A stretch of DNA of 62,838 nucleotides, counting the filler, from Nemertoderma westbladi (Eukaryota > Animalia > Xenacoelomorpha): assembly GCA_032718475.1 (NCBI GenBank). It is 4 parts of 4 records of this genome, joined end to end, with 100 filler letters (N's around TTAATTAATTAA, not from the genome) between each part and the next. Parts side by side here need not be neighbours in the genome. Positions count along the whole stretch, not along the records: positions 18,799 to 33,869 come from JAUCBJ010003991.1; 3 more parts are not named here. The stretch is one strand, 5' to 3'. The translations under genes and the position numbers were made by a program. The notes under the pieces were generated by a model. The model worked only from the letters and a program-made list of their open reading frames with translations, had not been told where the DNA came from and searched no databases. Of the stretch, positions 18,699-56,292 are shown one piece after another; positions within the stretch are counted from its first letter, which is position 1, and every line of letters begins with the position of its first letter.

Positions 18699-18798
18699 NN
18701 NNNNNNNNNNNNNNNNNNNNNNNNNNNNNNNNNNNNNNNNNNTTAATTAATTAANNNNNNNNNNNNNNNNNNNNNNNNNNNNNNNNNNNNNNNNNNNN
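18699..18798. other. Artificial scaffold spacer
   Basis: N44-TTAATTAATTAA-N44 (stop codons in all six frames). Confidence 0.98.
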
Positions 18799-20125
18799 TG
18801 AGGCGGAATTGAATACGCTCACACTCCCCCCCATGCTATCTTCCCGGTGAGAAGATAGCATCACCTTCGAGTGCGCTTCAATTCCGCTGGAACCCGATCT
18901 ACTATCGGGTGTGGGGTGCAGTTCTCTTACTTGGAGTCGGCTTACCAGGCCGCTCCCTCTGGGTATGATATTACTACCCTCTCTTGGTGCAACTTCGGCC
19001 TGTGTTGCACCAAGATATCTGGCGTCTCAGTTCGAGACAATTGTGGATTTCTCTCACACAATTTTATCTCCACTCCACTCTAACTGACTCTAACTTCTCT
19101 CCACTTTTCACCCTAACTCTTCTCTACTTCTCTCTACTTCCACTCTAACTTTCGGACCTCCTTGTCCCTCACTCTGCCTCTTACTCCTCCCCCCCACATT
19201 TGAATTGCACCCGCATTCTCTCCACGCGCCTCAACACCACCTCTCACTATCTTTCCTCATACTCCTCTCATACTCTTCTCATGTTCCTCTCATACTCCTC
19301 TCATTTTTGCCCTCACTCTCCACGTCTGCGGTCCCATCAAGTGCCCCTCCTACTCATATCCCGGTAGTGCCCATCTGGACGATTCTTATCCCGCAGGATA
19401 CGAGCTTTCACAATAAATCCTGAACTCCGCCCTGTTGTTTAATGACCACACACTTATCGGGTCCCACATATGTGTGCACCATGTTAGTGGGATCCGTCTA
19501 AGTCTCGTCCTGCTGTTCTAGTCAATTAGTCCCCAGTCCCAGTAGCTAATTGGAAGAAGGTTGTACTTGACTAAGGCATATATTATATAATATATACGAA
19601 TTATATACAATAATTAATTATTTAATTATATATTATATACATTATATTATATGCTCGTCTACATGACGCGTTTCAGTCTCTCTCCGCCTTTCTCGCCTGG
19701 CGAATTCTTCCAGTCGCTTCTCCTCAAGTCTATCCGCTTCCAACTTCTCCCACCTCTGTTATGGTGTATCCACCTCCCTGTCTACTAGATGCCGGCTGTT
19801 GTATTAACCGACTTGCCCTTCAGCCCCGGATGGTCTACCAGACCTTAGAAGGCCACCTTGAAGGCTCTTCTGTAGTTCGGGGGTGATCCTGATATTCTTA
19901 GTTTTATTTTATTCTACCCATATTCCCCCTGTCTGGGCTATTATCCTATCTACCTTTCTACGTGTCGCCCTTAGTGCCCACAACTTCCATGGTACTATGT
20001 GCCCTGCTAATATGTCTACCCAGTACCCTGCTATGTACCCCTCTCTTACTACGTGGCGCTTTTGGTGCCCACAACCCCTCTGCTACTACTTCTATGATAT
20101 ATTGTGCTCTCTATTCTCTTACTGC

Positions 20126-23100
20126 TAACTCTACTAACTCCACTAGCTCTACTAACTCCCTAACTCTACTAACTCTCTAACTCTACTAACTCTCTAACTC
20201 TCTAACTCTCTACCTCTACTAACTCTCTAACTCTACTAACTCTCTACCTCTACTAACTCTCTAACTCTACTAACTCTCTAACTCTACTAACTCTCTACCT
20301 CTACTAACTCTCTAACTCTACTAACTCTCTACCTCTACTAACTCTCTAACTCTACTAACTCTCTACCTCTACTAACTCTCTAACTCTACTAACTCTCTAC
20401 CTCTACTAACTCTCTAACTCTACTAACTCTCTACCTCTACTAACTCTCTAACTCTACTAACTATCTTACTCTCCAACTCTCTAACTCTACTAACGGTACT
20501 ACGTACCCTCTTACTCTCTAACTCTAACCCCACTAACGGTACTACGTACCCTCTTACTCTCTAACTCTAACTCTACTAACACTCTAACTCTACTAACTCT
20601 CTAACTCTAACTCTACTAATGGTACTACGTACCCTCTTACTCTCTAACTCTAGCTCTACTAACGGTACTACGTACCCTCTTACTCTCTAACTCTAACTCT
20701 ACTAACACTCTAACTCTACTAACTCTCTAACTCTCTAACTCTAACTCTACTAATGGTACTACGTACCCTCTTACTCTCTAACTCTAACTCTACTAACGGT
20801 ACTATGTACCCTCTTACTCTCTAACTCTAACCCCACTAACGGTACTACGTACCCTCTTACTCTCTAACTCTAACTCTACTAACACTCTAACTCTAGTAAC
20901 TCTCTAACTCTCTAACTCTAACTCTACTAATGGTACTACGTACCCTCTTACTCTCTAACTCTAGCTCTACTAACGGTACTACGTACCCTCTTACTCTCTA
21001 ACTCTAACTCTACTAACTCTCTAACTCTACTAACTCTCTACCTCTACTAACTCTCTAACTCTACTAACTCTCTACCTCTACTAACTCTCTAACTCTACTA
21101 ACTCTCTTACTCTCCAACTCTCTAACTCTACTAACGGTACTACGTACCCTCTTACTCTCTAACTCTAACTCTACTAACGGTACTATGTACCCTCTTACTC
21201 TCTAACTCTAACCCCACTAACGGTACTACGTACCCTCTTACTCTCTAACTCTAACTCTACTAACACTCTAACTCTACTAACTCTCTAACTCTCTAACTCT
21301 AGCTCTACTAACGGTACTACGTACCCTCTTACTCTCTAACTCTAACTCTACTAACGGTACTACGTACCCTCTTACTCTCTAACTCTAACTCTACTAACGG
21401 TACTACGTACCCTCTAACTCTACTAACTCTCTAACTCTCTAAATCTACTAACTCTCCAGCTCTACTAACTCTACTAACTCTCTAACTCTACTAACTCTCT
21501 AACTCTCTAACTCTAACTCTACTAATGGTACTACGTACCCTCTTACTCTCTAACTCTAACTCTACTAACGGTACTACGTACCCTCTTACTCAATAACTCT
21601 AACTCTACTAACGGTACTACGTACCCTCTAACTCTACTAACTCTCTAACTCTCTAACTCTAACTCTACTAATGGTACTACGTACCCTCTTACTCTCTAAC
21701 TCTAACTCTACTAACGGTACTACATACCCTCTTACTCAATAACTCTAACTCTACTAACGGTACTACGTACCCTCTAACTCTACTAACTCTCTAACTCTCT
21801 AACTCTACTAACTCTACTAACTCTCCAGCTCTACTAACTCTCTAACTCTACTAACTCTCTAACTCTACTAACTCTCTAACTCTCTAAATCTCTAACTCTA
21901 CTCTCTAACTCTAACCCCACTAACGGTACTACGTACCCTCTTACTCTCTAACTCTAACTCTACTAACACTCTAACTCTACTAACTCTAACTCTCTAACTC
22001 TAACTCTACTAATGGTACTACGTACCCTCTTACTCTCTAACTCTAACTCTACTAACGGTACTATGTACCCTCTTACTCTCTAACTCTAACTCTACTAACT
22101 CTCTAACTCTACTAACTCTCCAACTCTCCAGCTCTACTAACTCTCTAACTCTACTAACACTCTAACTCTACTAACTCTCTAACTCTCTAACTCTAACTCT
22201 ACTAATGGTACTACGTACCCTCTTACTCTCTAACTCTAGCTCTACTAACGGTACTACGTACCCTCTTACTCTCTAACTCTAACTCTACTAACTCTCTAAC
22301 TCTACTAACTCTCTAACTCTCTAACTCTCTAACTCTCTAACTCTAACTCTACTAATCGGTACTACGTACCCTCTTACTACTCTCTAACTAACTAACGGTA
22401 CTACGTACCCTCTTACTCTCTAACTCTAACTCTACTAACGGTACTATGTACCCTCTTACTCTCTAACTCTAGCTCTACTAACGGTACTACGTACCCTCTT
22501 ACTCTCTAACTCTAACTCTACTAACACTCTAACTCTACTAACTCTCTAACTCTCTAACTCTAACTCTACTAATCGGTACTACGTACCCTCTTACTACTCT
22601 CTAACTAACTAACGGTACTACGTACCCTCTTACTCTCTAACTCTAGCTCTACTAACGGTACTACGTACCCTCTTACTCTCTAACTCTAACTCTACTAACT
22701 CTCTAACTCTACTAACTCTCTAACTCTCTAACTCTAACTCTACTAATCGGTACTACGTACCCTCTTACTACTCTCTAACTAACTAACGGTACTACGTACC
22801 CTCTTACTCTCTAACTCTAGCTCTACTAACGGTACTACGTACCCTCTTACTCTCTAACTCTAACTCTACTAACTCCCTAACTCTACTAACTCTCTAACTC
22901 TCTAACTCTAACTCTACTAATGGTACTACGTACCCTCTTACTCTCTAACTCTAACTCTACTAACTCTCTAACTCTACTAACTCTCTAACTCTCTAACTCT
23001 CTAACTCTCTAACTCTAACTCTACTAACGGTACTATGTACCCTCTTACTCTCTAACTCTAGCTCTACTAACGGTACTACGTACCCTCTTACTCTCTAACT

Positions 23101-23531
23101 CTAACTCTACTAACTCTCTAACTCTACTAACTCTCTAACTCTCTAACTCTCTAACTCTAACTCTACTAATGGTACTACGTACCCTCTTACTCTCTAACTC
23201 TAACTCTACTAACGGTACTATGTACCCTCTTACTCTCTAACTCTAACCCCACTAACGGTACTACGTACCCTCTTACTCTCTAACTCTACTAACTCTCTAA
23301 CTCTCTAACTCTCTAACTCTAACTCTACTAACGGTACTATGTACCCTCTTACTCTCTAACTCTAGCTCTACTAACGGTACTACGTACCCTCTTACTCTCT
23401 AACTCTAACTCTACTAACTCTCTAACTCTACTAACTCTCTAACTCTCTAACTCTCTAACTCTAACTCTACTAATGGTACTATGTACCCTCTTACTCTCTA
23501 ACTCTAACTCTACTAACGGTACTATGTACCC
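20126..23531. repeat. 3.4-kb modular CT-rich array inside LTR copy A
   Basis: Built from CTCTAA, CTCTCTAA, CTCTACTAA and CGGTACTACGTACCCTCTTA modules. Confidence 0.95.
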
Positions 23532-23705
23532 TTGCTGCCCGCTACGTGGCGCCCTCAGTGCCCACAACTCTCTATAGTACTTGCTATGTACTTTACTGCT
23601 CCCCTACACCTATTTCTTTTACCTCTACTTCCTCACGTGATGCCCTCAGCGCCCACAGGTTTCGCACTTTCCATACTCTTCGGCTATGACATGCGTACAT
23701 ACCCC

Positions 23706-23992
23706 CCGTCACTTTGTGCCCTCTCTACTACTCTACTACCTGGCACCCTTTGTGCCCGCCTCTACTACTCTACTACCTGGCACCCTATGTGCCCGCCTCT
23801 ACTACTCTACTACCTGGCACCCTATGTGCCCGCCTCTACTACTCTACTACCTGGCACCCTTTGTGCCCACCTCTACAACTCTACTACCTGGCACCCTTTG
23901 TGCCAGCCTCTACTACTCTACTACCTGGCACCCTTTGTGCCCGCCTCTACTACTCTACTACCTGGCACCCTTTGTGCCCGCCTCTACTACTG
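23706..23992. repeat. 37-bp tandem repeat, about 7.5 copies
   Basis: Unit GCCTCTACTACTCTACTACCTGGCACCCTTTGTGCCC; starts at 23758, 23795 and onward. Confidence 0.95.
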
Positions 23993-24661: not shown

Positions 24662-24935
24662 AAAAATCGCCTCCGCTTTGCAGGACATTGCTTTCGCCGT
24701 GAGGACCAGCCAGTGCATAATCTTGTACTTTGGCAGCCTCATGGAGTGAATAAGCATGGTGGACAGCCCATGACTTTCTTGAGACGCATTTTAAAGGACA
24801 CTGGCCTTGAAGATGCGGATGATCTAGCAAATGTCATGGGTGATAGGGAGTTGTGGCGGTGCAATTTTGTTGACAAGCCGGCACAGCATTCTTAAAAATG
24901 CAGCTGCAATGCAGCATGCCGATCCTAGTAGTAGT
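24662..24935 (+). mobile_element. 5'-truncated RTE-clade LINE 3' end inserted in LTR copy A
   Basis: Near-identical to the reverse complement of 59105-59365; (TAG)n tail; ATCTTCC duplicated at 24655-24661 and 24936-24942. Confidence 0.9.
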
Positions 24936-25275
24936 ATCTTCCCCCTCTAGCTCGCCTCACTTTCCGCCCCACTCTCTTCCTCTAATCCTTCTCGTTTCTG
25001 GTCACCTGATGCCCTCAATGCCCACAAGTTTCTCCCTCTCCATACTCTTCTTGGTTATCCCACTTCTGACAACCAACGGTATGCATACATACCACCCCTT
25101 TCGATCCCGCATGTGACGCCCTCAGTCTACCTCAGTGCGTATGTTTCTCTTTAACTACCTACACCTTCACGTCGGCACGTCCATACCCTTCTCTGTCCAA
25201 CCTATTGGACCACTCAGCAACCTAAGGGCCACTCCTCCATCAGGCACCCTCCCATCTTCCCCCCTCTAGCTCGTC

Positions 25276-28200
25276 TCACTTTCCACCCCACTCTCTTCGT
25301 CGAATCCTCTTTGTTCTTGGTTGTCCATACTGCCGATACTGTAATGGGAGAATGTCACCATGCCCCCCCCCCCCCCCTCCCACCAATGTTATGTTTGGCA
25401 CTAGGGTTGATGTTAATACATTGGGGCCCATCCATCTATCTGCAATATCCCCCTCAACCGGGTATATGTTATGTCCCTGCATGTTATAGTCATACTGTTC
25501 TGCTGGTACCGGTATAGGCTTATCCACTTCGGGCCTACCTACCGGTATATACTCCGCGACTTCTGGGTTTAATCCCGTCGTCCGCGCTACCCTATCGCCT
25601 ACACTATCTCTCCCAGCATGGCCTATAGTATGTGCAGTAAGGCCTACAGTATGTCCTGCAGTCTGTATCTGTCCCTCCGGACCGAAGTTTAACCTTCTCG
25701 AATAATTCAAGAAGTCCTCCCCGCGACTACCGTACCCTCGATCGGCAGCTATATCCCGACGGGAAGTTTCTCTTCGATCCCCTCTCCCATTCTCGTCCAC
25801 GTACCGGTACGCCCTGTACCCCTCTCTCGGCGTATAGTACACCTCGCCAGCTTGTGTCTCTCTGGGGCGACGGCAATATCCCGGAGTTCGACCCCACTGA
25901 CTCTCCAACTCCATCTCTACTACTGATGGCTCACTATCTGTCCTCGCTCTCCGGTCTCTCGTAACGACACTTCTTCTACTCTCTTCTCTTCTTCTCTCTT
26001 CAGTGTAGCGTCCCCGCTCGTGAGATCTCTCGTCGACCTCTCGGTTAAACTCCACTGTTCTTCTTCCCTCTACTGACTGGGCTCGACGTCTCGTCGCTCG
26101 CCCGCTCGTGACGCCAACTTCCCTCTCTCTAGCCGGTTGCACGCCGCTGGGGATATTCGTAATCCCCCTATTACTCTCTGTCGCCGGGTGCTGCGGTTCA
26201 CCTAGCTCGCCCCGTGCATTGTCCGCCGACGCCTGTGGGACACTCTCTGCCCCCCCCCCCCCCCCCCCTCTCGCCGCTAATCTCTCGTTGTGGGGGGCCT
26301 GTAGCCCCCCCCCCCCCCCACTCACCACCTATTACTTCACTATCTCTCGCTTCGCCTCTACGCCCCTCTCTAGTCGACGCACTATCTCTAATGCGGCTGG
26401 GTCTATTCACCCCCGCCTCTCCCTCTATCACTGCGTGGCCTGGCAGGCTCCCGACGGGTTGACTCACCCCCGCTACTCCCTGTGTATTAACTATTACGTG
26501 GCCTTCCAGGCTCCCGTTGGGGTCTCTCACCCCCGCTACCCCCTGCGTACTAATTATGTGGCCTTGCAGGCTCTCGCTGGCCGGGCCACCTACATCTGCT
26601 GCATTTATATTAATAGCACCATTATTAACATTGTTGTTCAAATTATTTAAATTATTGGAGTTATTCTGTACTGAATTCGGATTATTTTTTAAATTATTTT
26701 GTATATTTGGGTTAGAATCGGGATTATTTTGTTCGTTTGAATTAAAATTATTATTTAGATTATTTTGCGTATTTAAATTTAAATTATTCGAGTTACTTTG
26801 CATATATGTTTAGATTATTATTTGAATTATTTGGATTACTATGTGCGTTTAAATTAGGGATACTCGGATTTAAATTACTGTTACCGGGCAAAATATTATT
26901 ACCTGCAATGAAAGTTTGATTAGGGTTGTCTACTACGGTACTATTAATATTAACGTCTTCTAACGTATTGTTATTACCCCCCCCCCCCCCCCCGCCCGTA
27001 CGGTTACACCAGTCTTGGGTCTGTCATCCGGTCCCTGTAAGTGGGGTATTAACAAACGTTTCCATAACCTCTGGCTCCTCGTAAATACTACCCGAGCCAG
27101 CCTCACTCTCTGATAGTCCCAACTGCGCCAGTTCTAGTCGGCGCTTCTGTTTGGCCTGATATTGTATAAGCCCCCTCAACCGGGCATGCATATCATCCCG
27201 CATGCACTTTCCGGCTCACTCTCTCTCTCTATCCTCTTGCAAACTCTGGTTCGCCAACTCTGTTTCTCTCGCCACCCGCTCTCTATGCTCGCTTTCTACA
27301 CTCGCTTCTCGCTCTCTATGCTCATTCATCTCTCTCGCCTCTCGCTCCTTACACTCGTTCTCCGCTCTCATTTCTCGCTCCTTACGTTCCTTTTCTCGCT
27401 CCTTACGTTCCTCTGTCTCTCTCTCTTCTTGCTCTCTACAATTTCTCGCTACCCTCTCGGTCCTCTCTCTACACTCCCTCGCCAACTCCCTCTCTTTCTC
27501 CAACAGTGCAGTTCCCTCATCCAACTGCCTCTCTAATTCTTTCTGGTCTAGCGCCACCATGTCTAATTGACACGCCAGATCTATCTCTAACACCCTTCTT
27601 GCTTTCGCGGAGGATGTAGCGGACTTATCGGTCGCGACGGACTCCCGTCACCTCTCTGTCCTACTAACTTTCCCCCGCTTACTAGGGTTCTCGCTAACCG
27701 ACGAGACCGAATCCTCGGGGTTAACCTCGGGTTCGCCCTCGTGCGGATCTGCCCAACCCACTAACTTAATTCCCCTAGCATCCACTAAATATGGCCCTAT
27801 ATACACCACTTCAGGCTCCATAACCCCGGATCGCCACAGTTCGAATAGTTCGGTGGCAACCCCCCTCGCTCTCTCACTCGCCAGTTCTCCCTGCCCAAAA
27901 CGGACTAGATATCTGAAATGTTTATTCGACTCACCTAGCCGCTGTCTCAACTTCCTTTGGTTTACCTTTGCCCCCTCTCTGGCCTCCTTGAGCTGTTTCT
28001 TCGTGGCGTTGTAGGCCCGTCGAAGCCGATCGCTGGTTCCGACGTCCTCATCGCCCACATCTCCTCCTCCTCTCCTGGTTCGGCGTCGTACCGGCGGCCC
28101 CACCGTCGCCGTTCCGGTGGGCCGTCCGTCGCCCTCGGCCTGTGGCTGGCCGGCGACTTCGGTACTTCGACCGCCGTCATACGTCGACTCGTCCCTTCCT

Positions 28201-28398
28201 TGCGGTAGACGGCCACCCTCCGCTTGGGCTGCCGAATCGTCTCTCGTCGGCGAATCCGGTGTCGCAGGTCAGTACTGTCGCGTCGCGGCCTCGCCGATCG
28301 TTTGGTTGGTATCGTCCGCCGTCCGCGGCGGTGTCCTCTTTCCCTCTGGTAGTTGGGGTCCTCCTGAACTCATCTTTAACTATCCGTCCTGCAGTCAC
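25276..28398 (-). pseudogene. Fragmented Gag-like ORF of LTR copy A (PEDSVSSVS motif, coiled coil, Asn-rich, Arg-rich)
   Basis: ORFs 27648-28103, 27216-27593, 26198-26803 and 25276-26328 are colinear with copy B. The TGA at 27648-27650 corresponds to an Arg CGA in copy B. Frameshifts occur at G-runs. The Gag identity is inferred from position only. Confidence 0.6.
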
Positions 28399-28427
28399 AG
28401 TTTCAGAGGTTGTTGGGAATCTTGCAC

Positions 28428-29020
28428 TGTGACGGGATCAAGGGATCCCGACCGGTTGTCAGGCTACGCGTCACCATGATATGAAATAAAGTTTGTTGTT
28501 ATCGTCTTGATGTTCGTATTGAAAATTGAATAAACACTGATAATAGTAAACAACAGCACAGTTGATAGATTGATGGAATAACAGTGTACCGGTATGGTAA
28601 TATATGTGATATGTGGTGACGGTGACGGTGCAAGATGTCACCGGTCTGCACTCAACTAATGACTGGAATAACTGAATTGCTATCTCAACATATTGGTAAT
28701 ATATCTAATCATTCCTACATTACTCTGGCCTTTGTCCAGTGGATGATTTCTCCCGCTCCTATTGGCTTATAACCTACTTCACGCCTCTCACCTCTGTGGG
28801 AGTGCTTTCCCCCCCCCCCCCCCCCCCTGTTGGTTATTTGCCCTCTCGAGGTGGTTTGACCTCTAACCTCCCTTTGTGTGGCTTTTGGGGTTTGTGTTAT
28901 CCCCGTTATTGGGTGTGATACGAGATTGGTTGTTATCAATCTCGTATCTCCAATATTGCTGAAAAAGGCGCCACTTCCCAACTTTATGGGGGTAATAAGG
29001 CGGATTTGAATCCGCTCACA
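28428..29020 (-). repeat. 5' LTR of copy A (593 bp)
   Basis: TG...CA termini with short inverted ends. The boundary is fixed by comparison with the copy C LTR, where homology stops at ATCCCGTCACA. Confidence 0.85.
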
Positions 29021-33869: not shown

Positions 33870-33969
33870 NNNNNNNNNNNNNNNNNNNNNNNNNNNNNNN
33901 NNNNNNNNNNNNNTTAATTAATTAANNNNNNNNNNNNNNNNNNNNNNNNNNNNNNNNNNNNNNNNNNNN
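33870..33969. other. Artificial scaffold spacer
   Basis: N44-TTAATTAATTAA-N44. Confidence 0.98.
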
Positions 33970-36900
33970 AGGACTGCGGGACTCCGGAGTCCCAAACACA
34001 AAAGCTAAGCTCCTGAAGTTTACTTTTGCACTTTGGACGAAATATTTGTTTTAGTGGACTAATTATAGATGAGAGCAACTCATCCCAGCGAAATTTCACA
34101 AATTTAATTATTTGTTAAGTTTTTATATAATCTCAAATTTGAAAAATATTTTTTTTACTTTGACAATGTTTGGAGAACTGTAGTTCTGAGTCATTGAGTC
34201 ATTAAGTGCAGTAATAACTGAAATTAAACAGACACACCTTCCCTTTATTCAAAACAACTAACAACATTTGTATACATATTACAGTGAAAAAATACCAGCT
34301 GTTTCCGTTTGCGGGATCTGGGAGTCCCGCTGTCCTTAAGTAACTTTTTTATCAAATGAGCTGAAATAACAGGACTTCTGTCAGTCTGATGCCTGTCGAA
34401 CACCGGACAGTGTTTTCACGGTATCGGCGACGATTGGCTGCTTTTAATGGCCCTTACAGATACATTGTCTACAAATTTAACCTACCGGTTCATTTTAGGT
34501 GGTTCGTTTTCTCAATCATATTTACCGGTCACTGCTATCAGCTGTTTAGCAGTCTGGCCTATTTCAGTATTTGTAGCGATGAAATTCAATTAGCTACTTG
34601 CTAGTACTGCTGTACTGTACTAGCCAAACAGCCTAACCAGGGCTGAGGGCTGCTAAGTAGGGCCAGGCTGGCTGTAGGTAATAATTTGGCCCAACTATTA
34701 GTAACTTAATATTATAGCAAGGCCTATATTCTATTCATACAGGACATACGTTAGCAGCCTACTACCGGGAGGGCCTCCACCTGTACTGTACCGGTACTGC
34801 TGTACTGTAGGTATGTGTACAGTAGTACTGACGCAGTGTTCTGTAACCTGCTCCTTTCCCTCAATTGGTTAAGTGGCCGTTTATTGTTTTGGTTAGACTG
34901 TGAAAATACCTGCCTCTATAACCTGCTCCTTTCCCTCATGCCTCAATTGGTTTATGATGTGTGTTACTCAGTTACTTATATTAGGCCTACAGCTGTACAG
35001 TATTACTGTATGTGGAGGCCCCCAAACGCTGTTAATCCCACCACCGGTATTAATTACATGGTTTGGTTACCATCAGACTGTACCTGCAACCTGTATCCTC
35101 TGATCCTGGTATCTGAGTTGAGTGGGGGTACCTACAACCTAGGCCTATATACATTGATACTGTAGGCCTACATACAATTGACAATTATTTAGTTATATGT
35201 TTGGCAATATCTCAATACGGCATTACAGAAACATTCGCTTCAAATATTACAGCATTACTGGTACCGGTACTGTGTTTATCTGTCTGTATAATCTGATAAT
35301 ATTATGGAATCTACCGGTACTCCCAGTTCTGGCTCAAAAATTCGAAAGTTTGTGAAACCCATATCTGTCAGTGGAAACAATGTTTATTCCATTCTCGATT
35401 GTATTGATAGTGATGAGGAAGATGATGTAGAAAATCTTTTAAATGATTCTGATACTGAATTTTTTCATTTTGACGGTTTTGACTTCGAGAGTGAGAGTGC
35501 TCATAATTTAGAAACATTAGAACATCCTTCTTGTGCACCTGGTTTAGAGGCCGTAATTCGGAACACTGAACAAGTAGATAGATCTACTACTGATTCTGAA
35601 ATGATTGAAACGGGAGGCCTAGGTCTATCATCTAAAGTCTCGACTTCTAGTGAGAGTAGTAGGCCTATTGAGCCTAGTGCGAAATCAAACTGTGTAGTAC
35701 CTGTAGAACGCAAACAATATCCAGTCCGCAAACGAGTTCGGATAGTTGATATTTTGAATAGGGGTAGGCCTAAGGAAAAATCGAAGGTAGCAAAGAAAGT
35801 CCCCCAGGCACCTGTTAGTGTACCAGATCTGGCGGAACAGCAGCAGGCCGAGTTTTCCCCTCAAGAACCTGTAATTGTCAGGAATAAGCCTATTCCATCG
35901 AAGAACAGATCATCAAAGTCAACAGGGAATACTTTTGATAAGCCTAGGCCTATAGAATGGAAACGGAGATATGGCCCTAATCCTAAGTTACCTTGTATTT
36001 ATGATGGTTTCCCTAGTATAGTGGGACCTTTATCTGATCTTGATGTCTTCAAAGCAGTTACCAATTGGGATTCTCTCTTACTCATGACTTGCACACAATC
36101 AAATGAGTATGCCTTGCAGAACGGGAGGCAATTTGTTGTTACCCCAGATGAGCTCAGTGCCTTTTTTGGAATAAACTTTGTAATGTCAATTGTGAAACTT
36201 CCCAGTCTCAAAGATTACTGGTCAACTTCTCGTGTCATGAGCCAGCCAATAATCTCTAGTACCATGACAAGGGCAAGGTTTCTGGATATTTTACAAAATC
36301 TACATGTTTCCGACAATAAGCTTGCACTTCCTCGTGACCATCCCAATTGTGACCGAGCTGCTAAGATCCGTCCCTTGATAGACCACCTCAATGCTTCCTT
36401 CAAATCTGTCAAGCAACCTGCTCCCCATCAAGCTGTTGATGAACACATGGTTAAGTATAAAGGCCACCAAATCATGAAACAATTTGTAAAAGGAAAGCCT
36501 ATTCGGTATGGGTTCAAGTTATGGTTTAGATGTGCTTCTAAAACTGGCTTTGTTGAGAAACTAGACATCTATGTTGGAAAGAAGAATTCTGGACCAGAGA
36601 TTGGTTTAGGTGAGTCTGTTGTACTTGATTTGGTGGATGATTTGAAAGACAGCTTTGTGACAATTGCCTCAGATAACTTCTTCACTAGTCCTAATCTTGT
36701 CCAAAAATTAACTGAAATGAACTTGTACTCAGTAGGTACTTGTCGAGTAAACCGCAAACAATTTCCTGTTGATATGCTCAAAGATGACAAGGAAATGAAG
36801 AGAGGAGACATTGATTGGCGTTGCTCAGGATCACTCGTTGCCACCAAGTGGGTTGATAATCGTTCTGTTTATATGTTGGATAATTTCATCAATCCTAGAG

Positions 36901-38069
36901 AAACTGTAGTTGTAAAGAGGCGCCAAGCTGGGACTACTGATAAGCTGTCCATTCAGTGCCCAAAATCAGTCCAAGTCTACAACAAACTCATGGGTGGAGT
37001 AGATCTATGTGATCAAATGAAGGCCAGCTACGAGTTAGATCGAAAGTCCAGGTTTCGGTTTTATTTACGATTAATATTTGATCTATTGGATGTCAGTGTT
37101 GTTAATTCCTTCCGACTCCAGGAACAACTAACCGGTGAGAAGTCCCGACTGCTAGATTATAAACTTAATCTCGCACAGTGTCTAATTGGAAACTTCTGCA
37201 GCCGTACTAGGGAAGCTCCCACCAATTACCGCAAGAAGATTCTTCCACCAATTGTTTCTAATGCTCTGAATGCCCACATGCCTCAGCTAGATGATGGGCG
37301 AGGCAGATGTGCCCAGTGTGCTAAGCAGATAATAGATCATATATTAGATGTAAAGCCTGTCAAGTACATCTTTGCATTGTATCTGGAATCAATGCTCGCA
37401 ATTGCTTCGAAGAGTACCATAATTAGTCTAAACTTTAATTAATTAATAATTTCATAATTAGTCTGCAATAATTGTTACATTGGTACCCAGTACCTGTATA
37501 TAATAGTTCTTAGTGGGAATTTCCAGTTATAAATAATTTTCATAATTTCATTCTTTTTTGTAATTTTCTCAGTAGCCTTTATTGTTTATATGCCTGCCTG
37601 TGCTAAACTTAGTTTAATTATTAATAGTTGTTACTTTGATATATATAATGGCCCTACTCTAGCTTGCATTTCCACTTTCCAGTTAATAAAAATTTTAGTT
37701 ATTTTCGCAATTTTTCATTTTTTTCATTTTTTTTAGAAATTTCTGCTATTTTTCAGAATTTCCGGGAATTCCTAAAACTCTTGGACCTTCTTCTTGGCAC
37801 GTTTAGGTGTACACATATACTGCCAGCTAATTTGGACTGGCCAGTTCATCATAATTTCCAACAATTTATACCTTTTCATTGATTTTATTGAAAAATGCCC
37901 AGGTTCACCTTAAGGACCATAGGGACTCCGGGATCCCGGCTCAGATTTCTATGAAGGCATTGAAATTTTTCAAAGTCCTTTTGTTTTTATGTTTTTATAT
38001 CGGCCTTGACCCCAAATATTCACTTGAATCAAATGTGGCACTTCTGGAACACTTGTGGTCCTCAAAGGG
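33970..38069 (+). mobile_element. piggyBac DNA transposon (left tip lost in the gap)
   Basis: Right end GGTCCTCAAAGGG|TTAA (TTAA at 38070-38073); left remnant AGGACTGCGGGACTCCGGAGTCCC; related subterminal repeats at 34311-34340 and 37909-37940. Confidence 0.9.
35304..37442 (+). CDS. piggyBac transposase, DDD triad intact, C-terminal cysteine-rich domain frameshifted
   Basis: Motifs AVDEHM, KPIRYGFK, ASDNFFTS and YNKLMGGVDLCDQ. Confidence 0.95.
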   Translation: MESTGTPSSGSKIRKFVKPISVSGNNVYSILDCIDSDEEDDVENLLNDSDTEFFHFDGFDFESESAHNLETLEHPSCAPGLEAVIRNTEQVDRSTTDSEMIETGGLGLSSKVSTSSESSRPIEPSAKSNCVVPVERKQYPVRKRVRIVDILNRGRPKEKSKVAKKVPQAPVSVPDLAEQQQAEFSPQEPVIVRNKPIPSKNRSSKSTGNTFDKPRPIEWKRRYGPNPKLPCIYDGFPSIVGPLSDLDVFKAVTNWDSLLLMTCTQSNEYALQNGRQFVVTPDELSAFFGINFVMSIVKLPSLKDYWSTSRVMSQPIISSTMTRARFLDILQNLHVSDNKLALPRDHPNCDRAAKIRPLIDHLNASFKSVKQPAPHQAVDEHMVKYKGHQIMKQFVKGKPIRYGFKLWFRCASKTGFVEKLDIYVGKKNSGPEIGLGESVVLDLVDDLKDSFVTIASDNFFTSPNLVQKLTEMNLYSVGTCRVNRKQFPVDMLKDDKEMKRGDIDWRCSGSLVATKWVDNRSVYMLDNFINPRETVVVKRRQAGTTDKLSIQCPKSVQVYNKLMGGVDLCDQMKASYELDRKSRFRFYLRLIFDLLDVSVVNSFRLQEQLTGEKSRLLDYKLNLAQCLIGNFCSRTREAPTNYRKKILPPIVSNALNAHMPQLDDGRGRCAQCAKQIIDHILDVKPVKYIFALYLESMLAIASKSTIISLNFN

Positions 38070-39633
38070 TTAACAGACTAGCCTAACAATACTGACACCT
38101 GTACTAAATCAGTCTAAAGGGGGTCGTACCTAATGTAACAATACTGCTGCCTAGGCAAAACAACAGTCTAATAAATTATTACTCCTTTTGCCGTAACTAA
38201 ATATCAGATCCTAAATTTACAAATACGAATAGTAAATTACAAAATAGATTCCGCCTGAAAGTAACCTAAAGTAAGCTACAACTAGTAGAGCTCTAAGGGT
38301 ACATATGTTTTAGGGCGTGTGTGTGTGGGTGTGTTACAAATAAAACAATTTTGGTGTACTCCATTGTACTAGGTTTTAGTGATTTTCTGACTGAAACAAT
38401 ACCGTGCGCTAGCTACGAAAATAAGCTAGTCGCGCTCTGTAGAACTTTATACTTACAAATGACATCAAACTCTCTCCTTCCTATCCACAACTCAACCGGG
38501 CAATTACGGTGTTAGTAACTACACCCGTGATCAGGCACAAATACCAGATTCTGGTTGTAAGATAAGAAATAGGGGTTAATTGCTACCGTACGTTAGCTGA
38601 TCTGGTATACAAATTTGATTCTAGAATTTTGTTGCCGGGGTGGTTAGCAGCAATACCTATCAGTACGTGGCAAGGCGCGGTAGGATATTAATAAACCTCC
38701 CTAGGCCAAGCGAAGTGCCGGTAGCAGAAATACTCCTTGCCTGCTCAAATAACTCGGGTTCAGGCAGGGGGGGGGGGGGGGGGGGGTGGTACTAATGTAT
38801 AAACTACAAGCAAACCGGTACCGAACTGTCAGTATTGCGAATCACTAAATTATGGAACATATGCTGTCTGTACCTAATATGCACTCGCGTACTGACGAAC
38901 GGCAATAGTTCACACCTGTAGGGAATACAGGTTAATCCAGGGATTTGCAGTACAGGTTCTGCTCTGTAGCCTACTGTAGCTATTTGATCCTAAATTTTGC
39001 GGCGTCCCAGGACGGCGTCACGCTTACCCTGATCTATAGGTCTTACGGCGGGCAAGGGCGTCAAACAAAGTCGTACCTTCCTCAGAATCGGGCGCTGCAT
39101 GGCAAAGGTGGAGTATTTCGAAGGGGCGAAGGGGGTGCGCGGGCTAATCTAATGTGGGCGCTAGCGTGTTGTGGACATCTTTCCCTGCGTTGCCGACGGC
39201 CTAATGGTTTATGCAGCCATCCTCCAAATGCTGGGCTGTCCCAATGGTGGACAAAGGGAAATATACATGTTCAAAGTTTACAGTATATTTAGAGTAATTT
39301 ACAAAAGAGTTTATCAACCAAATTTACATAAGTTTCAACAAGAAACTTAACAAATGTAACTAAAGAATGGTGATAAAGCAACGATTGTTAGAAATAACAA
39401 GGTTAACAAGATTGGAGACAAGTGATAACCGAAGGCAAACCAGCCCTTATATAGCAAATCTGGGACATAGAATCCGCTAGAACCTTCCAGAGCATTCCAT
39501 GGCCTCACATTGGAGCAATAAGATGTTGTATGCCCTATGATTGGCCCAACTCATCGTTCCATACGTTGTACGCACCTCATTGGCTTATCTAATTAGATCA
39601 AAGTGAAAATAAATTGCCCAATAATGCAAATTT

Positions 39634-39703
39634 CCCGACCGGGATTCGAACTCGTAACCTAGTTGTAATGTAACCAACGCCTTAACCATCTGACCATTGC
39701 GCC
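39634..39703 (-). other. tRNA-derived Pol III head (pseudo-tRNA or SINE)
   Basis: A box TGGTCAGATGG and B box GAGTTCGAATCC; no complete cloverleaf. Weaker tRNA-like heads at ~39945, 40200-40290 and 58135-58220. Confidence 0.5.
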
Positions 39704-41115
39704 AATAGAGTTACCTATGTGTTTATGTGTACCAATATGAATAGGCATATTACACTACTGTAATTTAATCAAAATGCGTCGGATTTTAAAAAGTTTTTAC
39801 GTTAAGCTACAAATGCTACCTTATAGTGAAATAATCCATCACTGGCCTACATCGATAAACGGTATAAAGCGTTTGAAACTAAAAAAAACCTCAACAAAAG
39901 AAGTCAAGCGGCAAACTGAAGAATAGAATATCATAAAAAGTTTATCCCGAATGGGAATAGACCCACTAACATCTCTACTATCAAATTCGCTTCTAGTATC
40001 AAAGTCAATCAATTAAAATGCATAGGCACTTCTTAAATAACATAAATATCTAAAATAAATCTTAGATTTTATTTGAATGGGATATGGGAAATCACCATAA
40101 TATGCCTATACATTAAATAAAATAATACTCTAATAAATATTAATTCCCTATCTAAGAATTTTACAAAACCAAATAATTTTCTTAGTAAACAGTAGTATCT
40201 CCAGGTGGGTTTGAATCCGGTTTCTCGAATTCCAAGTCCAACTCTACCAAGTGAGCTAAACAAAGTGGAAATCAACAACAATAAGAGGAACAACAAACAG
40301 AGGGGCTAGTAGAGATCTTGCAACGCGGACATCCCAGGACCCAAATTGATGCACTACCCATTGCAGAGGTAATTCAAACTCAATTACATACAAAATATAT
40401 CTACCCTCAAAATAACATATACTTTAATAGAACAAAACGAAAGAGTACCTAATTGATTATTGCAAGCTGTCTAAACAAACGTAGGCCTTCACATTTCTTC
40501 GCTAGTATTTTGTCAACTACAGTATTTTTTGTCTCTGGTGTCTATCTCTGTATGTATGAATCTATCTGCCATTAATCAGCATTTACTCGCACAGTTTCGA
40601 AACTTCGCATAGTTATAAAGGTCGTCAGTCTGCGTTTAGGAAATATATTTTATGACAAAGCAGGACGAGTGCAACGAGGCTTATAATTCGCCAGGTTGTG
40701 TTTCTCCGGGGCGACGGCAATCTCCCGAAGTACGATCCCACCGGCTCTCTCCCTCTAGTTCGACTATCGACGGTTCACTGTCCGTCCTATCTTGATGTCT
40801 CTGGTTGCCCATAGCAACATTTCCTCGTTCCTCCTTGCGTCCTCCAATTTTGGCATTATGTCCTCCTTCATGAGGTCTCGTATAGACCTCCCGGATGAAC
40901 TCTACCGTTCTCCTTCCGTCTTCCTAGTGGGCTCGACGTTTTCTTGTTTGGCCTCTTACGGCACCAACGTCCCTCCCTCTGCCTGGTTGTACGGCCTCGC
41001 GGATATTCGTTGCCCTTCTATTATCCTCCGTCGTCGGGTGCCACGGTTAACTTAACTCACCGTAATTTCTCACCGCATTTTCTGTCAACATCTGTGGGAC
41101 ATTTACTGCCCCACC

Positions 41116-44100: not shown

Positions 44101-44634
44101 AACTCATCACCTGCGGTAGTAGATTCCTGTCTGACCCGGAATCCCGCTATGCGATGATCGAGCGATGATCTATGCAATGATCGATCGATGCGAGGCAAAT
44201 GCAATTAAATACGCCTTTAGAAAGGGTCGATTATATCTGGCGGGTTTAAACAATTTTACCGTTGCAACCGACCACCGCCCTCTCATTTCCATATTCAACA
44301 AACAAACTCTAAATCAGGTTGAGAATGCTAAACTCCAGCGAATTAAATCCGAACTCCAGTCACACTACCAATTCACAGTTGAGTGGCAGTGTGCTGCTAA
44401 GAACCGTACCGCTGACTGTCTAAGTCGAGCTCCAGTCGATAATCCCGACAATGAGACTTGGGATGAAGTCGACGAATGGGTAATAAACGCGATCCTTCTA
44501 GCCTCCATCACTCCGGACGACGGTTCCGGGGACAACTTAATAATCGAGGAGTTGCGACGAGCCGCGTTAAGTGACGAAAACTACCAGGAGCTTATGCGAG
44601 AAACTCAGAATGACTTCAGCGGATTCAAAACTAA
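41116..44634 (+). mobile_element. Ty3/Gypsy LTR retrotransposon, pseudogenised and 3'-truncated (no integrase or 3' LTR)
   Basis: Putative LTR 41116-41365 (TG...CA); PBS TGGCGCTGCGAG (tRNA-Ser-like); gag with broken knuckle CIN*GRKGHIAKRC; protease ADTGS at ~42690; RT 43029-43643 (VDAKSGYWQV, IVDDILI); RNase H (ETDAS, SRYAMIE, TDHRPL). Confidence 0.93.
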
Positions 44635-47243
44635 CTCTCGTCACTAACTGGTTGCGGTGGGATGTCTGTAGCCCCCCCCCCCCCCCCCCCCCCACCCGTC
44701 ACTTCTCACTTTGCCCCCATGCCCGTGTTCCCCTCCAGTCTACACATTACATCTATTCTCCCTGAGTCCATTAGCCCGCCTTCCTTCCTGCGCAACCGCG
44801 CGGCCTTGTAGGCCCCCGCAAGGCGAATTACCTGTTTCCCCAACATTTGTATTAATTATACCGCCACTAGCCTCACCCTGTTGATTTGTTATATTATTAC
44901 TTGAATTATTTTGATTCATTTCACAGGAATTATTTACAACATTATTATTTCTGTACCCGGGTTATTATTCAAATTATTTTGATTATTTGGCGCACCAAAT
45001 ATTTACATTATTATTAATCAAAACATTATTTCCTGCAAGAAATGTTTCATTGGTATTAGGGTTATCTACTATGGTACTATTAATGTTAATGTTTTCATTA
45101 AATGTATTGTCATTACCCCCCCCCCCCTATCCGTCCGGTCACACCAGGTCTGTCGTCCGGTACCTGTAAGTGGGGTATTAACAAAGGTTTCCATCACCCC
45201 TGGTTCCTCATAAATACTTACCGAACCAGCCTCAATTTCCGATAAACCCATTTTTGCCAGTTCTAATTGGCGTTTTTGTTTCAACTGATACTGCATTAAT
45301 CCCCTCAACCGGGTGTGCATATCATCCCGCATTCTCTTACCAGCTATCTCTCTCTCCCTGCCCTCTCTAACACTCTGATCGGTTAACATTTCCTCCCTCG
45401 CAATCCACTCAGCTTTCCTCGCTTCTCGCTCATTGCACTCGTTCACTTCTCTATCGGCCCTCTCTGCCTCCCTTGCTTCTCACTCTTTGCGCTCATTCAC
45501 TTCTCTCTCAGCCTCCCTCGCTTCTAACTCTTTGCCATCGTTCTCTTCCCTCTCCTCACATTCTCTATAGTTCCTCGCCACCCTCTCGGCACTCTCTTCC
45601 CTTTCAGTTCTCAGTTCCCACTCAGTTCCCTTTTCCTTTCTAGTAATGCAGTCCCCTCATCCAACTGTCTTTCTAATTCCTTTTGGTCTAGCGCGACTAT
45701 GTCTAGCTGACACGCCAGATCTATCTCTAACACCCTACTTGCTTTCGCGGAGGATGTAGTGGACTTTTCGATTGCGACTGACCCCCGTCGCCTCTTTGTT
45801 CTACTAATTTTGCTGTGTCTGCTAGCATTTCTACTGACTGATGACACCGAATCTTCGGGGTTAACCTCGGGTTCGGTGTCATGCGGATCTGCCCATCCCA
45901 CTAACTTAATACCCCTTGCATCCACTAGATAGGGCCCTATGTACACTACACTAGCCGACACCACCTCGGATCGCCACAATTCGAACAGTTATGTGGCGAC
46001 CCCCCTCGCCCTCTCACTTGCTAGTTCCCATGGCCCAAATAGGACTAGGAAGTGGAAATGTTTGTTGCACTTACCTAGCCTCCGGTACAACTTGGGCTGG
46101 TCTACCTTTCCTCCCATTTTAGTGTCCATTAACAACTTCCTCGTGGCGTTGTACCCCCGTCGTATGTTATCGCTCGTCCCAACATCTTCCTCCTGGACTT
46201 GAACTTATCTCCTCGTCCAGCACCGCACCGTCAGTCCCACCATTGCCGTTCCAGTGGGCCGCTCGCTGCCTTCGGCCATTGGTTGGCCGGCGACACCGGT
46301 ACCTCGTTTGCCGCTGTGATCCCGCGTCGACTCGCATCCTTCTTCCCCTCGTTCTCGGCTGCTGTCCTCTCCGACCACCAAATCATCTCTCCTCTCCGAA
46401 TCCGGTGTGGCGGGTCGATACCGCCTCGTCGCTGCTTCCCGAATCGTCTGGTCTCTGTCGCTCGGGGTTCGCGGCGGGCTCGCTTCTCCCTCTGGACCTT
46501 GGGGCGTCTGTTGTTCGCTCATCGTTGGCGTTGGCTGTTGTCACAGTTTATTTTATTTTCTTTTGATGGCATTGACTCCGGTTTTTAACTGTGATGGGAT
46601 CCTGGAGTTGGCAGTATGGATCCCAACCGGTGCGTTGTTTGGGTTATACGCGTCGCCGCGTCCATGGGCTGCGGAAAGGCCTGATAGTATCTGAACTCTA
46701 AGGACAAAGGCCGTTTGAATAACTGAGTTTTAGTGGCAGTTGTTCGTAATGTCAGAATATAATAATGGCACAATCAAAATATAATAGCACGGTAATGACG
46801 ACGGTTAAAAACCATTCCGGTCTCACAACTCTACACATACCAACTGAATCATAAGCAATAAATACAACGGTTATATTTTCAACACATATTGGTTACTTCT
46901 ACTGTTCTAAGTGGCCTGACCAATGGATGCACTCCAATCAGGTGGTATCCTGTCCCATCATTGGCCAACCTATTAATCTCCACTTCGGCACTCCATGTTG
47001 CCACTATCCCCAATTGCTAGCCCCTTTTTCCCCTTGAGATGCTTTATGGCCTCTCAACTCTGTTCGTGGAAGGCAATGTGTATTGCCTAAGTCGGTTATT
47101 AGGTGACATTATATTAGTAATGTCACCTTCCCAACTATAATTGGTAACATTAGTAGATTTTGAGGCGGGAAAGCGAAGATAAATAATGAAAAGAAAAACC
47201 AGCGCTAGTGTCCTGAATTTCATAGTATAATATTACCAAAAAA

Positions 47244-47282
47244 GCAAACGTTTCGATTATATCACATAACCATCATCAGTGC
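47244..47282 (-). ncRNA. Minimal type I hammerhead ribozyme (inverted copy)
   Basis: Exact reverse complement of 49006-49044. Confidence 0.85.
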
Positions 47283-47630
47283 GATCAAGCAGTTCAATGC
47301 AGAGAATAAACTAATATATAATTACGAGAAAAAGCTATAAATTGCAACCTAAATATAAATACTAACTAAAGGCAAAAAATATACTATGGAATGTAAACAT
47401 GTGCACAACTACAGTAGGGCGGCCTAACCAGAAAATAAAGCTAGCTTTATACAACTAAAACCAATCTGTGTGTTAAGGGTAGGGCGTATATCTCGAATGT
47501 ACAATGACTCCTTAATTGAGGTATCGAAACTATTTGTAGCAGCACCAATAATTTTGAAATTATCAGTTGTACAGATAGCGTGATCAGTTTCTAAACAATT
47601 ATGAAATTATAGTTATCTACTCTCTACACA

Positions 47631-48863
47631 ATGCCGACTCCTGACCCTTCCCGTTTTCGAGCGCTGAACGAACCAGTAGTTGATAGTCCGATACTGATTA
47701 AGGGACTCAATAAAGAACAAATGAGAACTCTACTACGTTTTGCCCTGCATAATAATTATTTCACTTTTGACAATTCATTATTTATTCAATGTGACGGCGT
47801 GGCAATGGGGTCCCCCTTAGGCCCAGTTTTAGCTAATGCTTTTCTGGCCCATCACGAACTCAATTGGCTTCAAAATTGTCCCCCTTCGTTTAAACCTAAG
47901 TTTTACCGTCGGTATGTCGATGACACATTTATAGTTTTTGACACAATAGAACAATCCCAGCTATTTTTGTCTTACCTAAACAAACAACATCCCAACATTG
48001 AGTTCACTTGCGAATCTGAAAATAATAGTTCTATATCTTTTCTGGATATTAAAGTAACGCAGCTTAGTGATTTTGGATTTTCCACTTCAGTGTATCGAAA
48101 ACCCACATTCACTGGCCTGTACACTAGTTATTACTCCTTCATCCCCTTCCGTTACAAATTCGGCCTTGTTTTCACTTTAATTTATAGAATTTTTCATATT
48201 TCATCTAACTATACTATTTTCAACGATGCACTAATAGAACTATATTCTATTTTGTTACGCAATGGGTATCCCATGAAACTACTTAATGATATCACTAGGT
48301 TATTTATATCCCGTGCCCAGCTGCCTCAGCCAGTTCCGGCACCTACAGTAGAAAGAAAGAGCGTGTATCTAGTACTACCTTTTGCTGGTGAATTTAGTTA
48401 TTTAATTAGGAATAGATTACGTAAATTATTTAATACCAACTTTGCGCATATAGAACTCAAGGTCATTTTTAGGCCATCTGTAAGACTTGGTTCATTCTTC
48501 GGTTATAAGGACAAGCGTCCCCTTCATACCCGTTCCAAGGTTGTCTATTTATATTCCTGTGGTAGCTGCAATGCTACTTATGTAGGTAAAACTGTCAGAC
48601 ACCTTGCTGTTCGCGTAGGAGAGCATGCTGGCCGCTCCTTCCTTACCGGTAGGCTATCGGTACCGAAGGCTTCAGCCATATACGATCATTGTTTAGAAAC
48701 TGATCACGCTATCTGTACAACTGATAATTTCAAAATTATTGGTGCTGCTACAAATAGTTTCGATACCTCAATTAAGGAGTCATTGTACATTCGAGATATA
48801 CGCCCTACCCTTAACACACAGATTGGTTTTAGTTGTATAAAGCTAGCTTTATTTTCTGGTTAG
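47631..48863 (+). CDS. Penelope RT (C-terminal half) plus GIY-YIG endonuclease
   Basis: Motifs QCDGVAMGSPLGPVLAN, YRRYVDDTF, FLDI, VYRKPT and VVYLYSCGSCNATYVGKT. Confidence 0.95.
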   Translation: MPTPDPSRFRALNEPVVDSPILIKGLNKEQMRTLLRFALHNNYFTFDNSLFIQCDGVAMGSPLGPVLANAFLAHHELNWLQNCPPSFKPKFYRRYVDDTFIVFDTIEQSQLFLSYLNKQHPNIEFTCESENNSSISFLDIKVTQLSDFGFSTSVYRKPTFTGLYTSYYSFIPFRYKFGLVFTLIYRIFHISSNYTIFNDALIELYSILLRNGYPMKLLNDITRLFISRAQLPQPVPAPTVERKSVYLVLPFAGEFSYLIRNRLRKLFNTNFAHIELKVIFRPSVRLGSFFGYKDKRPLHTRSKVVYLYSCGSCNATYVGKTVRHLAVRVGEHAGRSFLTGRLSVPKASAIYDHCLETDHAICTTDNFKIIGAATNSFDTSIKESLYIRDIRPTLNTQIGFSCIKLALFSG

Positions 48864-49005
48864 GCCGCCCTACTGTAGTTGTGCACATGTTTACATTCCA
48901 TAGTATATTTTTTGCCTTTAGTTAGTATTTATATTTAGGTTGCAATTTATAGCTTTTTTCTCGTAATTATATATTAGTTTATTCTCTGCATTGAACTGCT
49001 TGATC

Positions 49006-49044
49006 GCACTGATGATGGTTATGTGATATAATCGAAACGTTTGC
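49006..49044 (+). ncRNA. Minimal type I hammerhead ribozyme
   Basis: GCA-CTGATGA-T-GGTTAT(GTGAT)ATAATC-GAAAC-GTT-TGC: conserved core, stem II and the short palindromic stem III typical of Penelope pLTR hammerheads. Confidence 0.85.
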
Positions 49045-49419
49045 TTTTTTGGTAATATTATACTATGAAATTCAGGACACTAGCGCTGGTTTTTCTTTTC
49101 ATTATAATTGGTAAAAAGCCACTTTCCCCATTTCCGCTGGGTAGTGCAGGGAATTGAATCCGCTTACAAATTTTAATTTAATTAAAATTGACACTTCCGA
49201 AAATAAAAAAAAACAATGTAGTAAAGTGTATAAAGTAAAATGTATACATGTAAAGTGGAAATATGGTGTATATAAAGTTTTTTTTTTACTCAAAAGCCTC
49301 TGTATATTATGATATAAACAAACAATAATTCAAATATAATAACGCACATAAACAAGTACAAATATAACCCACCACCAGCTAATTCAAACTGTTACCTAGC
49401 AACAATACAAATTGGTCCA

Positions 49420-52799: not shown

Positions 52800-53911
52800 A
52801 TAAGCAACAACAAGTCCCAAGCTTAGGTTCGAATAAAATCAGATATAACTTATCCCAACTAGCTACAGTACTGGGAGGGGGGACTTTCTGACAAATGTAC
52901 CAGACAAACACAACTGGACAAGACCATAATGACTGCAGTCATCACATGTGTGGTCACACATGTGCGACTGGGGGACCCTTACAAGAGTGAGAGAATATGG
53001 GGGGTTGAGTGGTGAGGGGTGTAACGTCTGGGAAATGTGGTGAGCGAGTCGGGGGAAGAGGATGAGTCCTATGGGACTAATGAGACTAATGAAACGTGTG
53101 AGAAGTGAAGAAATTGGGGCCCGCGGATCCGATCCAACGGTACCCAATTTAAAATTGTAGATAAACGTTTATTTCATCATTTATCACATTATCTACTGTG
53201 GTATAACAGAGACACCGTATACCTTGGCGAAACATAACTCGCAGGAGTGCCAAGGATTGGTAGGGAGATCAGACCCAGTGGGGCCAGATTGGGGACTGGT
53301 CCAAGATAAGATAGTCCCACCCCACATCTAATGCTAGATTGGATTCCCCGGAATGGAGCGCAATTTACTGTGATGCAATCTTCTCACCGGGAAGATAGCA
53401 TGGGGGAATGTTAGCGGATCCATTCCGCTGTACATTTCCTCCATAAAATGGGGGGGGGGGGGGGGGGGGGGGGGTGCTATTTACCAAGTTGGCCATCAAG
53501 GTCTCCAATAGGGCATACGAGCAAAGGGATGATGCAATTAGATACTGTAGCACATGTCAATGAGTGTATCGACCGGAGGCCAACAACGTGTCAGCCTAAG
53601 GGCAGTATATTTCCCCTTAAACATATATACAGTATATTAACGGATGTGTATTAACTTAGTTGGCATTTATTCATGTGGGACAATGAACAGTTTTCACCGT
53701 CAGCCGTAACTACTGTAATACTGATTGTGCTATGATCATTTTACCGGTAACTATCCTGACCTATTATACATTAACGACAAACAAACTCAGAACTCTAATA
53801 GGTCTTATTTACCGAGCCTTCTGCCGTCAGTATTCCCTAACGCGGCGACGCAGAGTTAACATCATAAAGTCAACCCGGTCGGGATCCCTTGCCAACCAGT
53901 ATCCCGTCACA
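52800..53911 (+). mobile_element. LTR family copy C: 3' region, PPT and 3' LTR (53409-53911)
   Basis: ATCTTCTCACCGGGAAGATAGCATGGGGGAA|TGTTAGCGGAT matches the reverse complement of ~18811-18856; the LTR ends ATCCCGTCACA. Confidence 0.82.
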
Positions 53912-56192: not shown

Positions 56193-56292
56193 NNNNNNNN
56201 NNNNNNNNNNNNNNNNNNNNNNNNNNNNNNNNNNNNTTAATTAATTAANNNNNNNNNNNNNNNNNNNNNNNNNNNNNNNNNNNNNNNNNNNN
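56193..56292. other. Artificial scaffold spacer
   Basis: N44-TTAATTAATTAA-N44. Confidence 0.98.

Follow-up and report, generated by a model that had tools for sequence, protein, structure and literature searches.

Self-priming of reverse transcription has been worked out experimentally in the fission-yeast element Tf1 and is inferred elsewhere. The Tf1 mechanism is described in PMC7175516 and PMC10085805 (both in excerpt), and within the Tf1/sushi group self-priming extends from fungi to vertebrates (PMC4600332, in excerpt). Tf1 and Tf2 of Schizosaccharomyces pombe, Tj1, Tosmo1-3 and the Tf1/sushi elements are Ty3/gypsy chromoviruses of fungi, vertebrates and non-seed plants. For the vertebrate Tf1/sushi elements self-priming has already been proposed (PMC10085805, PMC4600332, in excerpt), so that self-priming in an animal is not the novelty that the original prediction for the present locus had implied. 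In plants, self-primers were predicted in 12% of the surveyed elements (PMC6317226, in excerpt); these predictions span gypsy and copia lineages, so that the trait is not the property of a single clade. The Belpaoviridae carry an 18-nt site for tRNA-Arg or tRNA-Gly (ICTV, PMC8742986).

The window analysed here, a stretch of 62,838 nt from Nemertoderma westbladi, consists of four sequence pieces joined by runs of N around a short linker (18699-18798, 33870-33969 and 56193-56292). It contains three LTRs of one family, copy A in the second piece and copies B and C in the third; LTR C is an additional copy that the original prediction did not include. Because the pieces were joined artificially, the neighbourhood of the copies in the window is not a genomic one. 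The LTR features are:

28428..29020, minus strand: 5' LTR of copy A, TGTGAGCG...CCCGTCACA, 593 nt; its start agrees with the starts of the A 3' LTR and of LTRs B and C, its end with that of C
18799..18845, minus strand: polypurine tract of copy A and first 25 nt of its 3' LTR, truncated at the end of the sequence piece
46590..49168, minus strand: 5' LTR of copy B, split by a nested element of 1.9 kb
53409..53911, plus strand: 3' LTR of copy C, preceded by a polypurine tract and followed by unrelated flank

Direct TG...CA terminal repeats and a polypurine tract ahead of the 3' LTR identified copy A as an LTR retroelement, and copy C likewise. Only 25 nt of the 3' LTR of copy A, which begins at 18823 (minus strand), precede the end of the piece; they match the first bases of the 5' LTR and follow the purine tract. 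From 5' LTR to 3' LTR, copy A runs through decayed reading frames, more than 3 kb of simple repeats and the purine tract. The 3' end of copy B was not found within the window, where no copy of the family has both element ends. LTR C can be aligned with A and B only as far as TCACA, and this loss of similarity marks the LTR end. The original prediction had given this end correctly, though without evidence. The LTR does not begin with TGTTAC (29029 in A, 47150 in B) but with TGT.AGCG, the start that the copies share.

The 1.9-kb element in LTR B (47183-49105) has 421-nt inverted ends (99.5% alike), a weak RT match and a 12-nt stretch repeated on both of its sides; it may be Penelope-like. A and C share a block of about 200 nt ahead of the polypurine tract (18823-19032 versus 53205-53408), 71% alike and with no common open frame; it is possibly a cis-acting RNA element. 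Elsewhere the window holds a 42-nt satellite (14520-17629, 74 copies, 93% matches), an open frame of 716 codons with a DDE_Tnp_1_7 (piggyBac-type) match (35292-37442), a LINE ORF2-like frame of 924 codons with endonuclease, RT and DUF6451 (59083-61857), and a sulfatase piece that is 42-57% identical to echinoderm, arthropod, lancelet, cnidarian and other proteins (best 120 of 765 matches). A galactosyltransferase search aimed at placing the host gave no match at 1e-20.

The sequence following the LTR was compared with the LTR itself, which yielded these features:

28419..28427, minus strand: primer-binding position of copy A, GTGCAAGAT, immediately 3' of the LTR, without TGG
28628..28636, minus strand: candidate self-primer segment of copy A, ATCTTGCAC, with 9 Watson-Crick pairs to the post-LTR site
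46580..46589, minus strand: primer-binding position of copy B, GTTAAAAACC
46804..46813, minus strand: candidate self-primer segment of copy B, GGTTTTTAAC, with 10 Watson-Crick pairs and one G-U
53689..53697, plus strand: third segment variant, in copy C, AGTTTTCAC, in the same register, 214 nt from the LTR end; the matching primer site lies outside the window

A TGG was absent from the 30 nt downstream of the LTR in A and in B, in agreement with the original prediction that no TGG-type primer site follows the 5' LTR. Thus both copies have no tRNA 3'-end site and carry instead a post-LTR sequence complementary to their own LTR, as in Tf1. In A, 28636-28628 pairs with 28427-28419 in 9 Watson-Crick pairs with a mismatch next; in B, 46813-46804 pairs with 46589-46580 in 10 Watson-Crick pairs and one G-U. 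All coordinates and letters predicted for the two duplexes proved to be correct. The partner segment ends 200 nt (A) or 214 nt (B) ahead of the LTR end and abuts CGTC. Pairing with the own LTR was perfect in both copies that have a post-LTR site, i.e. in the only two complete primer/site pairs, since C is without a primer site. Both sides had changed at positions 3, 4, 7 and 9 of the 9 pairs common to A and B. This bears out the claim of different but perfectly complementary duplexes, with four double changes and for the own LTR only: in cross-tests the post-LTR sequence of A or B paired over just 4-5 nt with the other two LTRs. The duplex energies were -11.8 and -11.1 kcal/mol for the own pairs and -0.1 and -1.6 kcal/mol for the swapped pairs.

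Chance complementarity has to be considered since the B duplex is short and AT-rich and such matches occur at 0.5-0.9% of the positions of the window; the empirical null over 60,051 positions gave a match of at least 9 nt in 0.87% and of at least 10 nt in 0.47%. Yet, two copies share one register and differ by four double changes, for which independent drift would have a rough chance of 2e-5 to 1e-4. A dinucleotide-shuffled LTR contained the complement anywhere in 13 of 20,000 cases for A (584 nt) and in 28 of 20,000 for B (593 nt, a few of them from the nested element). We regard chance as an extremely improbable origin of the pairing.

Six public runs of the same species are listed, five of which contain part of the window, and none is recorded as RNA. 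Contigs covering 28300-28800 numbered 397, 600 and 416 in three of four runs and 5 in the fourth, the runs representing at most two samples. Contig depth peaked at the hairpin and LTR end and rose a second time over the region of the segment. Among the best 40 of 181 rows, the primer-site positions 3, 4 and 7 had other letters in 8-20 contigs of each run. All three belong to the four positions at which A and B differ, and the public letters were those of B at positions 4 and 7, not at 3. As to the mirror changes expected in the segment, no variant rows of any kind were listed for this short stretch of the public contigs. Metagenome and viral contigs contained no copy by protein or by the U5 hairpin pattern.

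We consider it likely that the now decayed elements A and B were self-primed, with a segment of their own LTR in place of a tRNA. By analogy with Tf1, the RNA would fold back so that the primer site pairs with the LTR segment of 9-10 bases; an RNase H activity would cleave between AC and CGTC, where the duplex ends on its 3' side, and synthesis from the 3' end so produced would proceed across the LTR end. The Tf1 primer is reportedly not removed. Retroviral tRNA sites are recopied from the primer during plus-strand synthesis. If the primer site of the present family were likewise recopied from its primer, both strands would drift together with no host tRNA pinning the sequence. Copy A is without a detectable pol, and the enzymes would therefore have to come from a partner element outside the window.

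The duplex is accompanied by further predicted helices:

28613..28627, minus strand: R strand of the long-range R-U5 stem of A; a 6-nt tandem duplication creates two registers, the second being preferred in the fold
28469..28477, minus strand: U5 strand of the R-U5 stem of A
28433..28450, minus strand: U5 hairpin of A, 7 bp, with 5 nt between it and the primer site; pair probability 0.86-0.98 in 21 of 21 constructs
46651..46803, minus strand: R-U5 stem of B (46803-46797 with 46657-46651), 6 Watson-Crick pairs and one G-U; predicted probability at most 0.57
46595..46625, minus strand: U5 hairpin of B, 8 bp; pair probability 0.94-0.97
53698-53706 with 53843-53850, plus strand: R-U5 stem variant of C with one bulged base
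53880-53906, plus strand: U5 hairpin of C, 6 bp
28640..28646, minus strand: GACCGGT of A, just 5' of the segment, complementary to 28456-28450; it crosses the primer duplex
28394..28401, minus strand: leader sequence ACTGTGAC of A, complementary to the LTR end and the first two bases of the primer site (28433-28426); the same in B

The R-U5 stem and the U5 hairpin were present in all three LTRs, those of C beside the third segment. Between A and B the R-U5 stem showed one double change, besides the G-U pair in B, and the U5 hairpin one. The stems described in the original prediction are thus real, but their co-variation was overstated. C lacks the helix between GACCGGT and U5, which has 5 bp in B, and A and B do not differ in the leader helix; hence neither helix receives support from co-variation. 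Compared with the three-duplex 'pretzel' of Tf1, a central duplex, an upstream hairpin and an overlapping stem of LTR end and leader were observed. U5 and the stretch immediately 3' of the primer site formed no conserved stem, and Rfam returned nothing at gathering level for the LTR region of A. The leader motif AAACTGTGAC (28384-28403, 46534-46550) is identical in A and B amid divergent flanks, with CAG next. It pairs with the LTR end and could in addition be a splice acceptor.

These helices raise the question of whether the duplex is a structural or regulatory element of a two-state leader, e.g. for packaging, dimer formation or translation control, while priming occurs otherwise. The primer duplex has two competing helices in A as well as in B, and the U5 region contains the palindromes ACCGGT and GGATCC, as would suit such a function. 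On the other hand, the 3' strand of the duplex begins exactly at the first post-LTR base in A and in B, where priming must occur, no alternative primer site is visible, and one of the competing helices, the upstream one, is missing in C. A purely structural role is decidedly unlikely, and self-priming remains the preferred interpretation of the duplex.

Where the RNA starts determines whether the segment would be its 5' end. Two motif pairs and their counterpart in C bear on this point:

28670..28703, minus strand: TATA-like motif (28703) and initiator-like TCAGTT (28675-28670) of A, 37 nt upstream of the segment, as motif matches only
46842..46875, minus strand: TATA-like motif (46875) and initiator-like TCAGTT (46847-46842) of B, 32 nt upstream of the segment, as motif matches only

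In C an initiator-like TTAGTT lies 31 nt upstream of the segment behind a TATA-like run, so that in all three LTRs a TATA-like run is followed about 30 nt later by an initiator-like hexamer (consensus TCAKTY; PMC3601003, in excerpt). Since the segment has these motifs 31-37 nt upstream of it in each LTR, the primer may be located inside the RNA rather than at its 5' end, the position known from Tf1 and presupposed by the original prediction. An RNA start at the segment would fit the sharp edge of the duplex and the pyrimidine-purine step found at the start of each segment. We regard the choice between the two as near even and slightly favour a start about 31-37 nt upstream. A longer primer produced from there would have to be trimmed, or copying would have to stop, to give the sharp duplex edge. 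For Tf2, the choice of the start site decides on priming competence (PMC5341516, in excerpt). A scan of three LTR stretches found no canonical AATAAA in sense orientation.

Folding was computed as nested equilibrium without pseudoknots and Gag chaperoning, and within this frame the duplex depended strongly on the RNA start. With starts 0-5 nt before the segment its predicted probability was 0.59-0.99 in A and 0.51-0.99 in B, compared to 0.01-0.13 with starts at least 20 nt upstream and a leader of 60 nt; B with a start 35 nt upstream gave 0.00-0.03. Starting at the initiator-like motif, the duplex reached 0.02 (A) and 0.01 (B) with the 60-nt leader, and without a long leader 0.97-0.98 in A, while it was lost in B. 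In minimum-energy folds starting 14 and 12 nt upstream the duplex was absent, with a z-score of -0.66 for B.

The low probability of the duplex with an upstream start would suit a different primer: a host tRNA fragment, such as the 5' half used in some copia-type lineages, or a small RNA, for which the LTR segment would only keep the site masked beforehand. Pyrimidine-rich and ending in AC, the three segments presumably resemble, to our eye, anticodon loops. Half-tRNA primers do exist and make a TGG unnecessary (PMC6317226, in excerpt). Yet, A and B would need different tRNAs together with four matched changes in the mask, and a primer fixed by the host should resist variation of the site, which was seen at three positions among the best 40 of 181 rows of the public contigs. 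ARAGORN detected no tRNA gene in the window. A stretch at about 39630-39705 (minus strand) appears tRNA-like and of SINE type by eye; ARAGORN made no call there. Overall we rate a host-derived primer as quite unlikely and favor the LTR segment as the primer.

A more specific version of self-priming would combine an internal primer with the competing helices. In a lineage that is unclassified, invertebrate and not a chromovirus, the primer would lie about 30 bases inside the RNA behind a gate of two folds, with the upstream-U5 and LTR-end-leader helices in the closed state and the primer duplex in the open state; the site would be rewritten from the primer in each cycle, and the primer sequence could drift freely within the genome. 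We put this forward tentatively and consider it doubtful as a whole.

The coding content was examined for the placement of the family:

25276..28373, minus strand: decayed frames in gag position of copy A, ORF1 (with coiled-coil-like and Asn-rich parts) and the Arg/Gly-rich ORF2, without family match

The ORF1 regions of A and B were 72% alike over 1515 columns, and 57 of 109 differences fell on third codon positions (137 codons); by this substitution pattern ORF1 is a real gene. No relatives of ORF1 were found among 1036 candidates, and a comparison with 1.84 billion proteins gave only two weak, unrelated matches. The ORF1 pieces of A and B had no Atlas match, and the selected ORF pieces scanned (16 + 12 frames) gave no Pfam match, Gag and Pol of BEL/Pao included. 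A structure model of an ORF1 piece was poor, with a mean pLDDT of 51.5, and had no fold match. A tblastn search with the RT pieces of the window itself detected no pol remnant in copy A, and no pol or chromodomain of this family was found within the window. At the place where pol of copy A would be expected, 20107-23991 is occupied by more than 3 kb of short tandem repeats (units of 8-43 nt, then a 37-nt unit); a LINE fragment lies at 24663-24936. The RT/RNase H at 42924-44647 was rejected as pol of the family, since the plus-strand block containing it (about 41115-44635) has no counterpart in A and is thus part of another element. This block is a decayed Gypsy-type array of gag, protease, RT and RNase H nested in B, in which an integrase was not seen.

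With neither a pol nor a relative of ORF1, the superfamily of the elements is unplaced. The original prediction had tied the family to the Tf1/sushi group. This tie is unsupported, as A has no detectable pol, the RT in B belongs to a nested element on the opposite strand and ORF1 is without relatives. What stood is self-priming with a drifting primer, which is the best reading of the duplex and a likely one.

Among known systems, the Tf1/sushi elements resemble the family in its signature. Both have no tRNA site, a post-LTR sequence that pairs with an upstream LTR segment, and a further duplex just upstream of the site (PMC10085805, PMC7175516, PMC4600332, in excerpt). The duplex has 11 bp in Tf1 and 9-10 bp here. 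While the Tf1 primer is the 5' end of the RNA, the segment of this family is possibly located 31-37 nt inside the RNA. The long-range stem lies beside the segment in this family, whereas Tf1 has a conserved stem directly after the primer site (PMC10085805, in excerpt). In contrast to Tf1/sushi the host is an invertebrate, and copies with 72% similarity in ORF1 have different primers. The published 3' motifs of Sushi and rGmr1 fit the LTR ends of A and C (PMC3601003, in excerpt), which is a resemblance and not a placement.

Copy A presumably recalls the TR-GAG type, non-autonomous LTR elements that keep only the gene in gag position: it shares LTRs, primer site, polypurine tract and a conserved 5' ORF without detectable pol. 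Unlike these, it measures about 10 kb with arrays of simple repeats, and the absence of pol is known from one copy. The Ser-rich stretch of ORF1 followed by a coiled-coil-like run recalls, as we assume, the N-termini of BEL/Pao Gag. Belpaoviridae are also metazoan LTR elements with an LTR length in the same range, but their 18-nt tRNA 3'-end site has no counterpart here, where no TGG occurs within 30 nt of the LTR end. The plant elements Tcn1 (gypsy) and TAR, Houba and Osr-1 (copia) are predicted self-primers with the same sequence signature (PMC6317226, in excerpt); they differ in their plant hosts and in being classified by pol.

In the literature searched, outside of which lay the primary Tf1/sushi papers and the supplements including the prediction lists of PMC6317226, no co-varying self-primers in an invertebrate family were found; the excerpts of PMC554778, PMC3118150, PMC2864245, PMC6934838 and PMC5006619 contained no such case. 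The basic trait of self-priming is not new. Taken together, the self-priming signature is real, well supported and of a known mechanism, in an unplaced family of an invertebrate with a possibly different position of the primer. A primer located inside the RNA would, if true, broaden the known mechanism. Where primer and site change together among the many copies of an animal family within one genome, the copy-back idea would become testable by counting copies.
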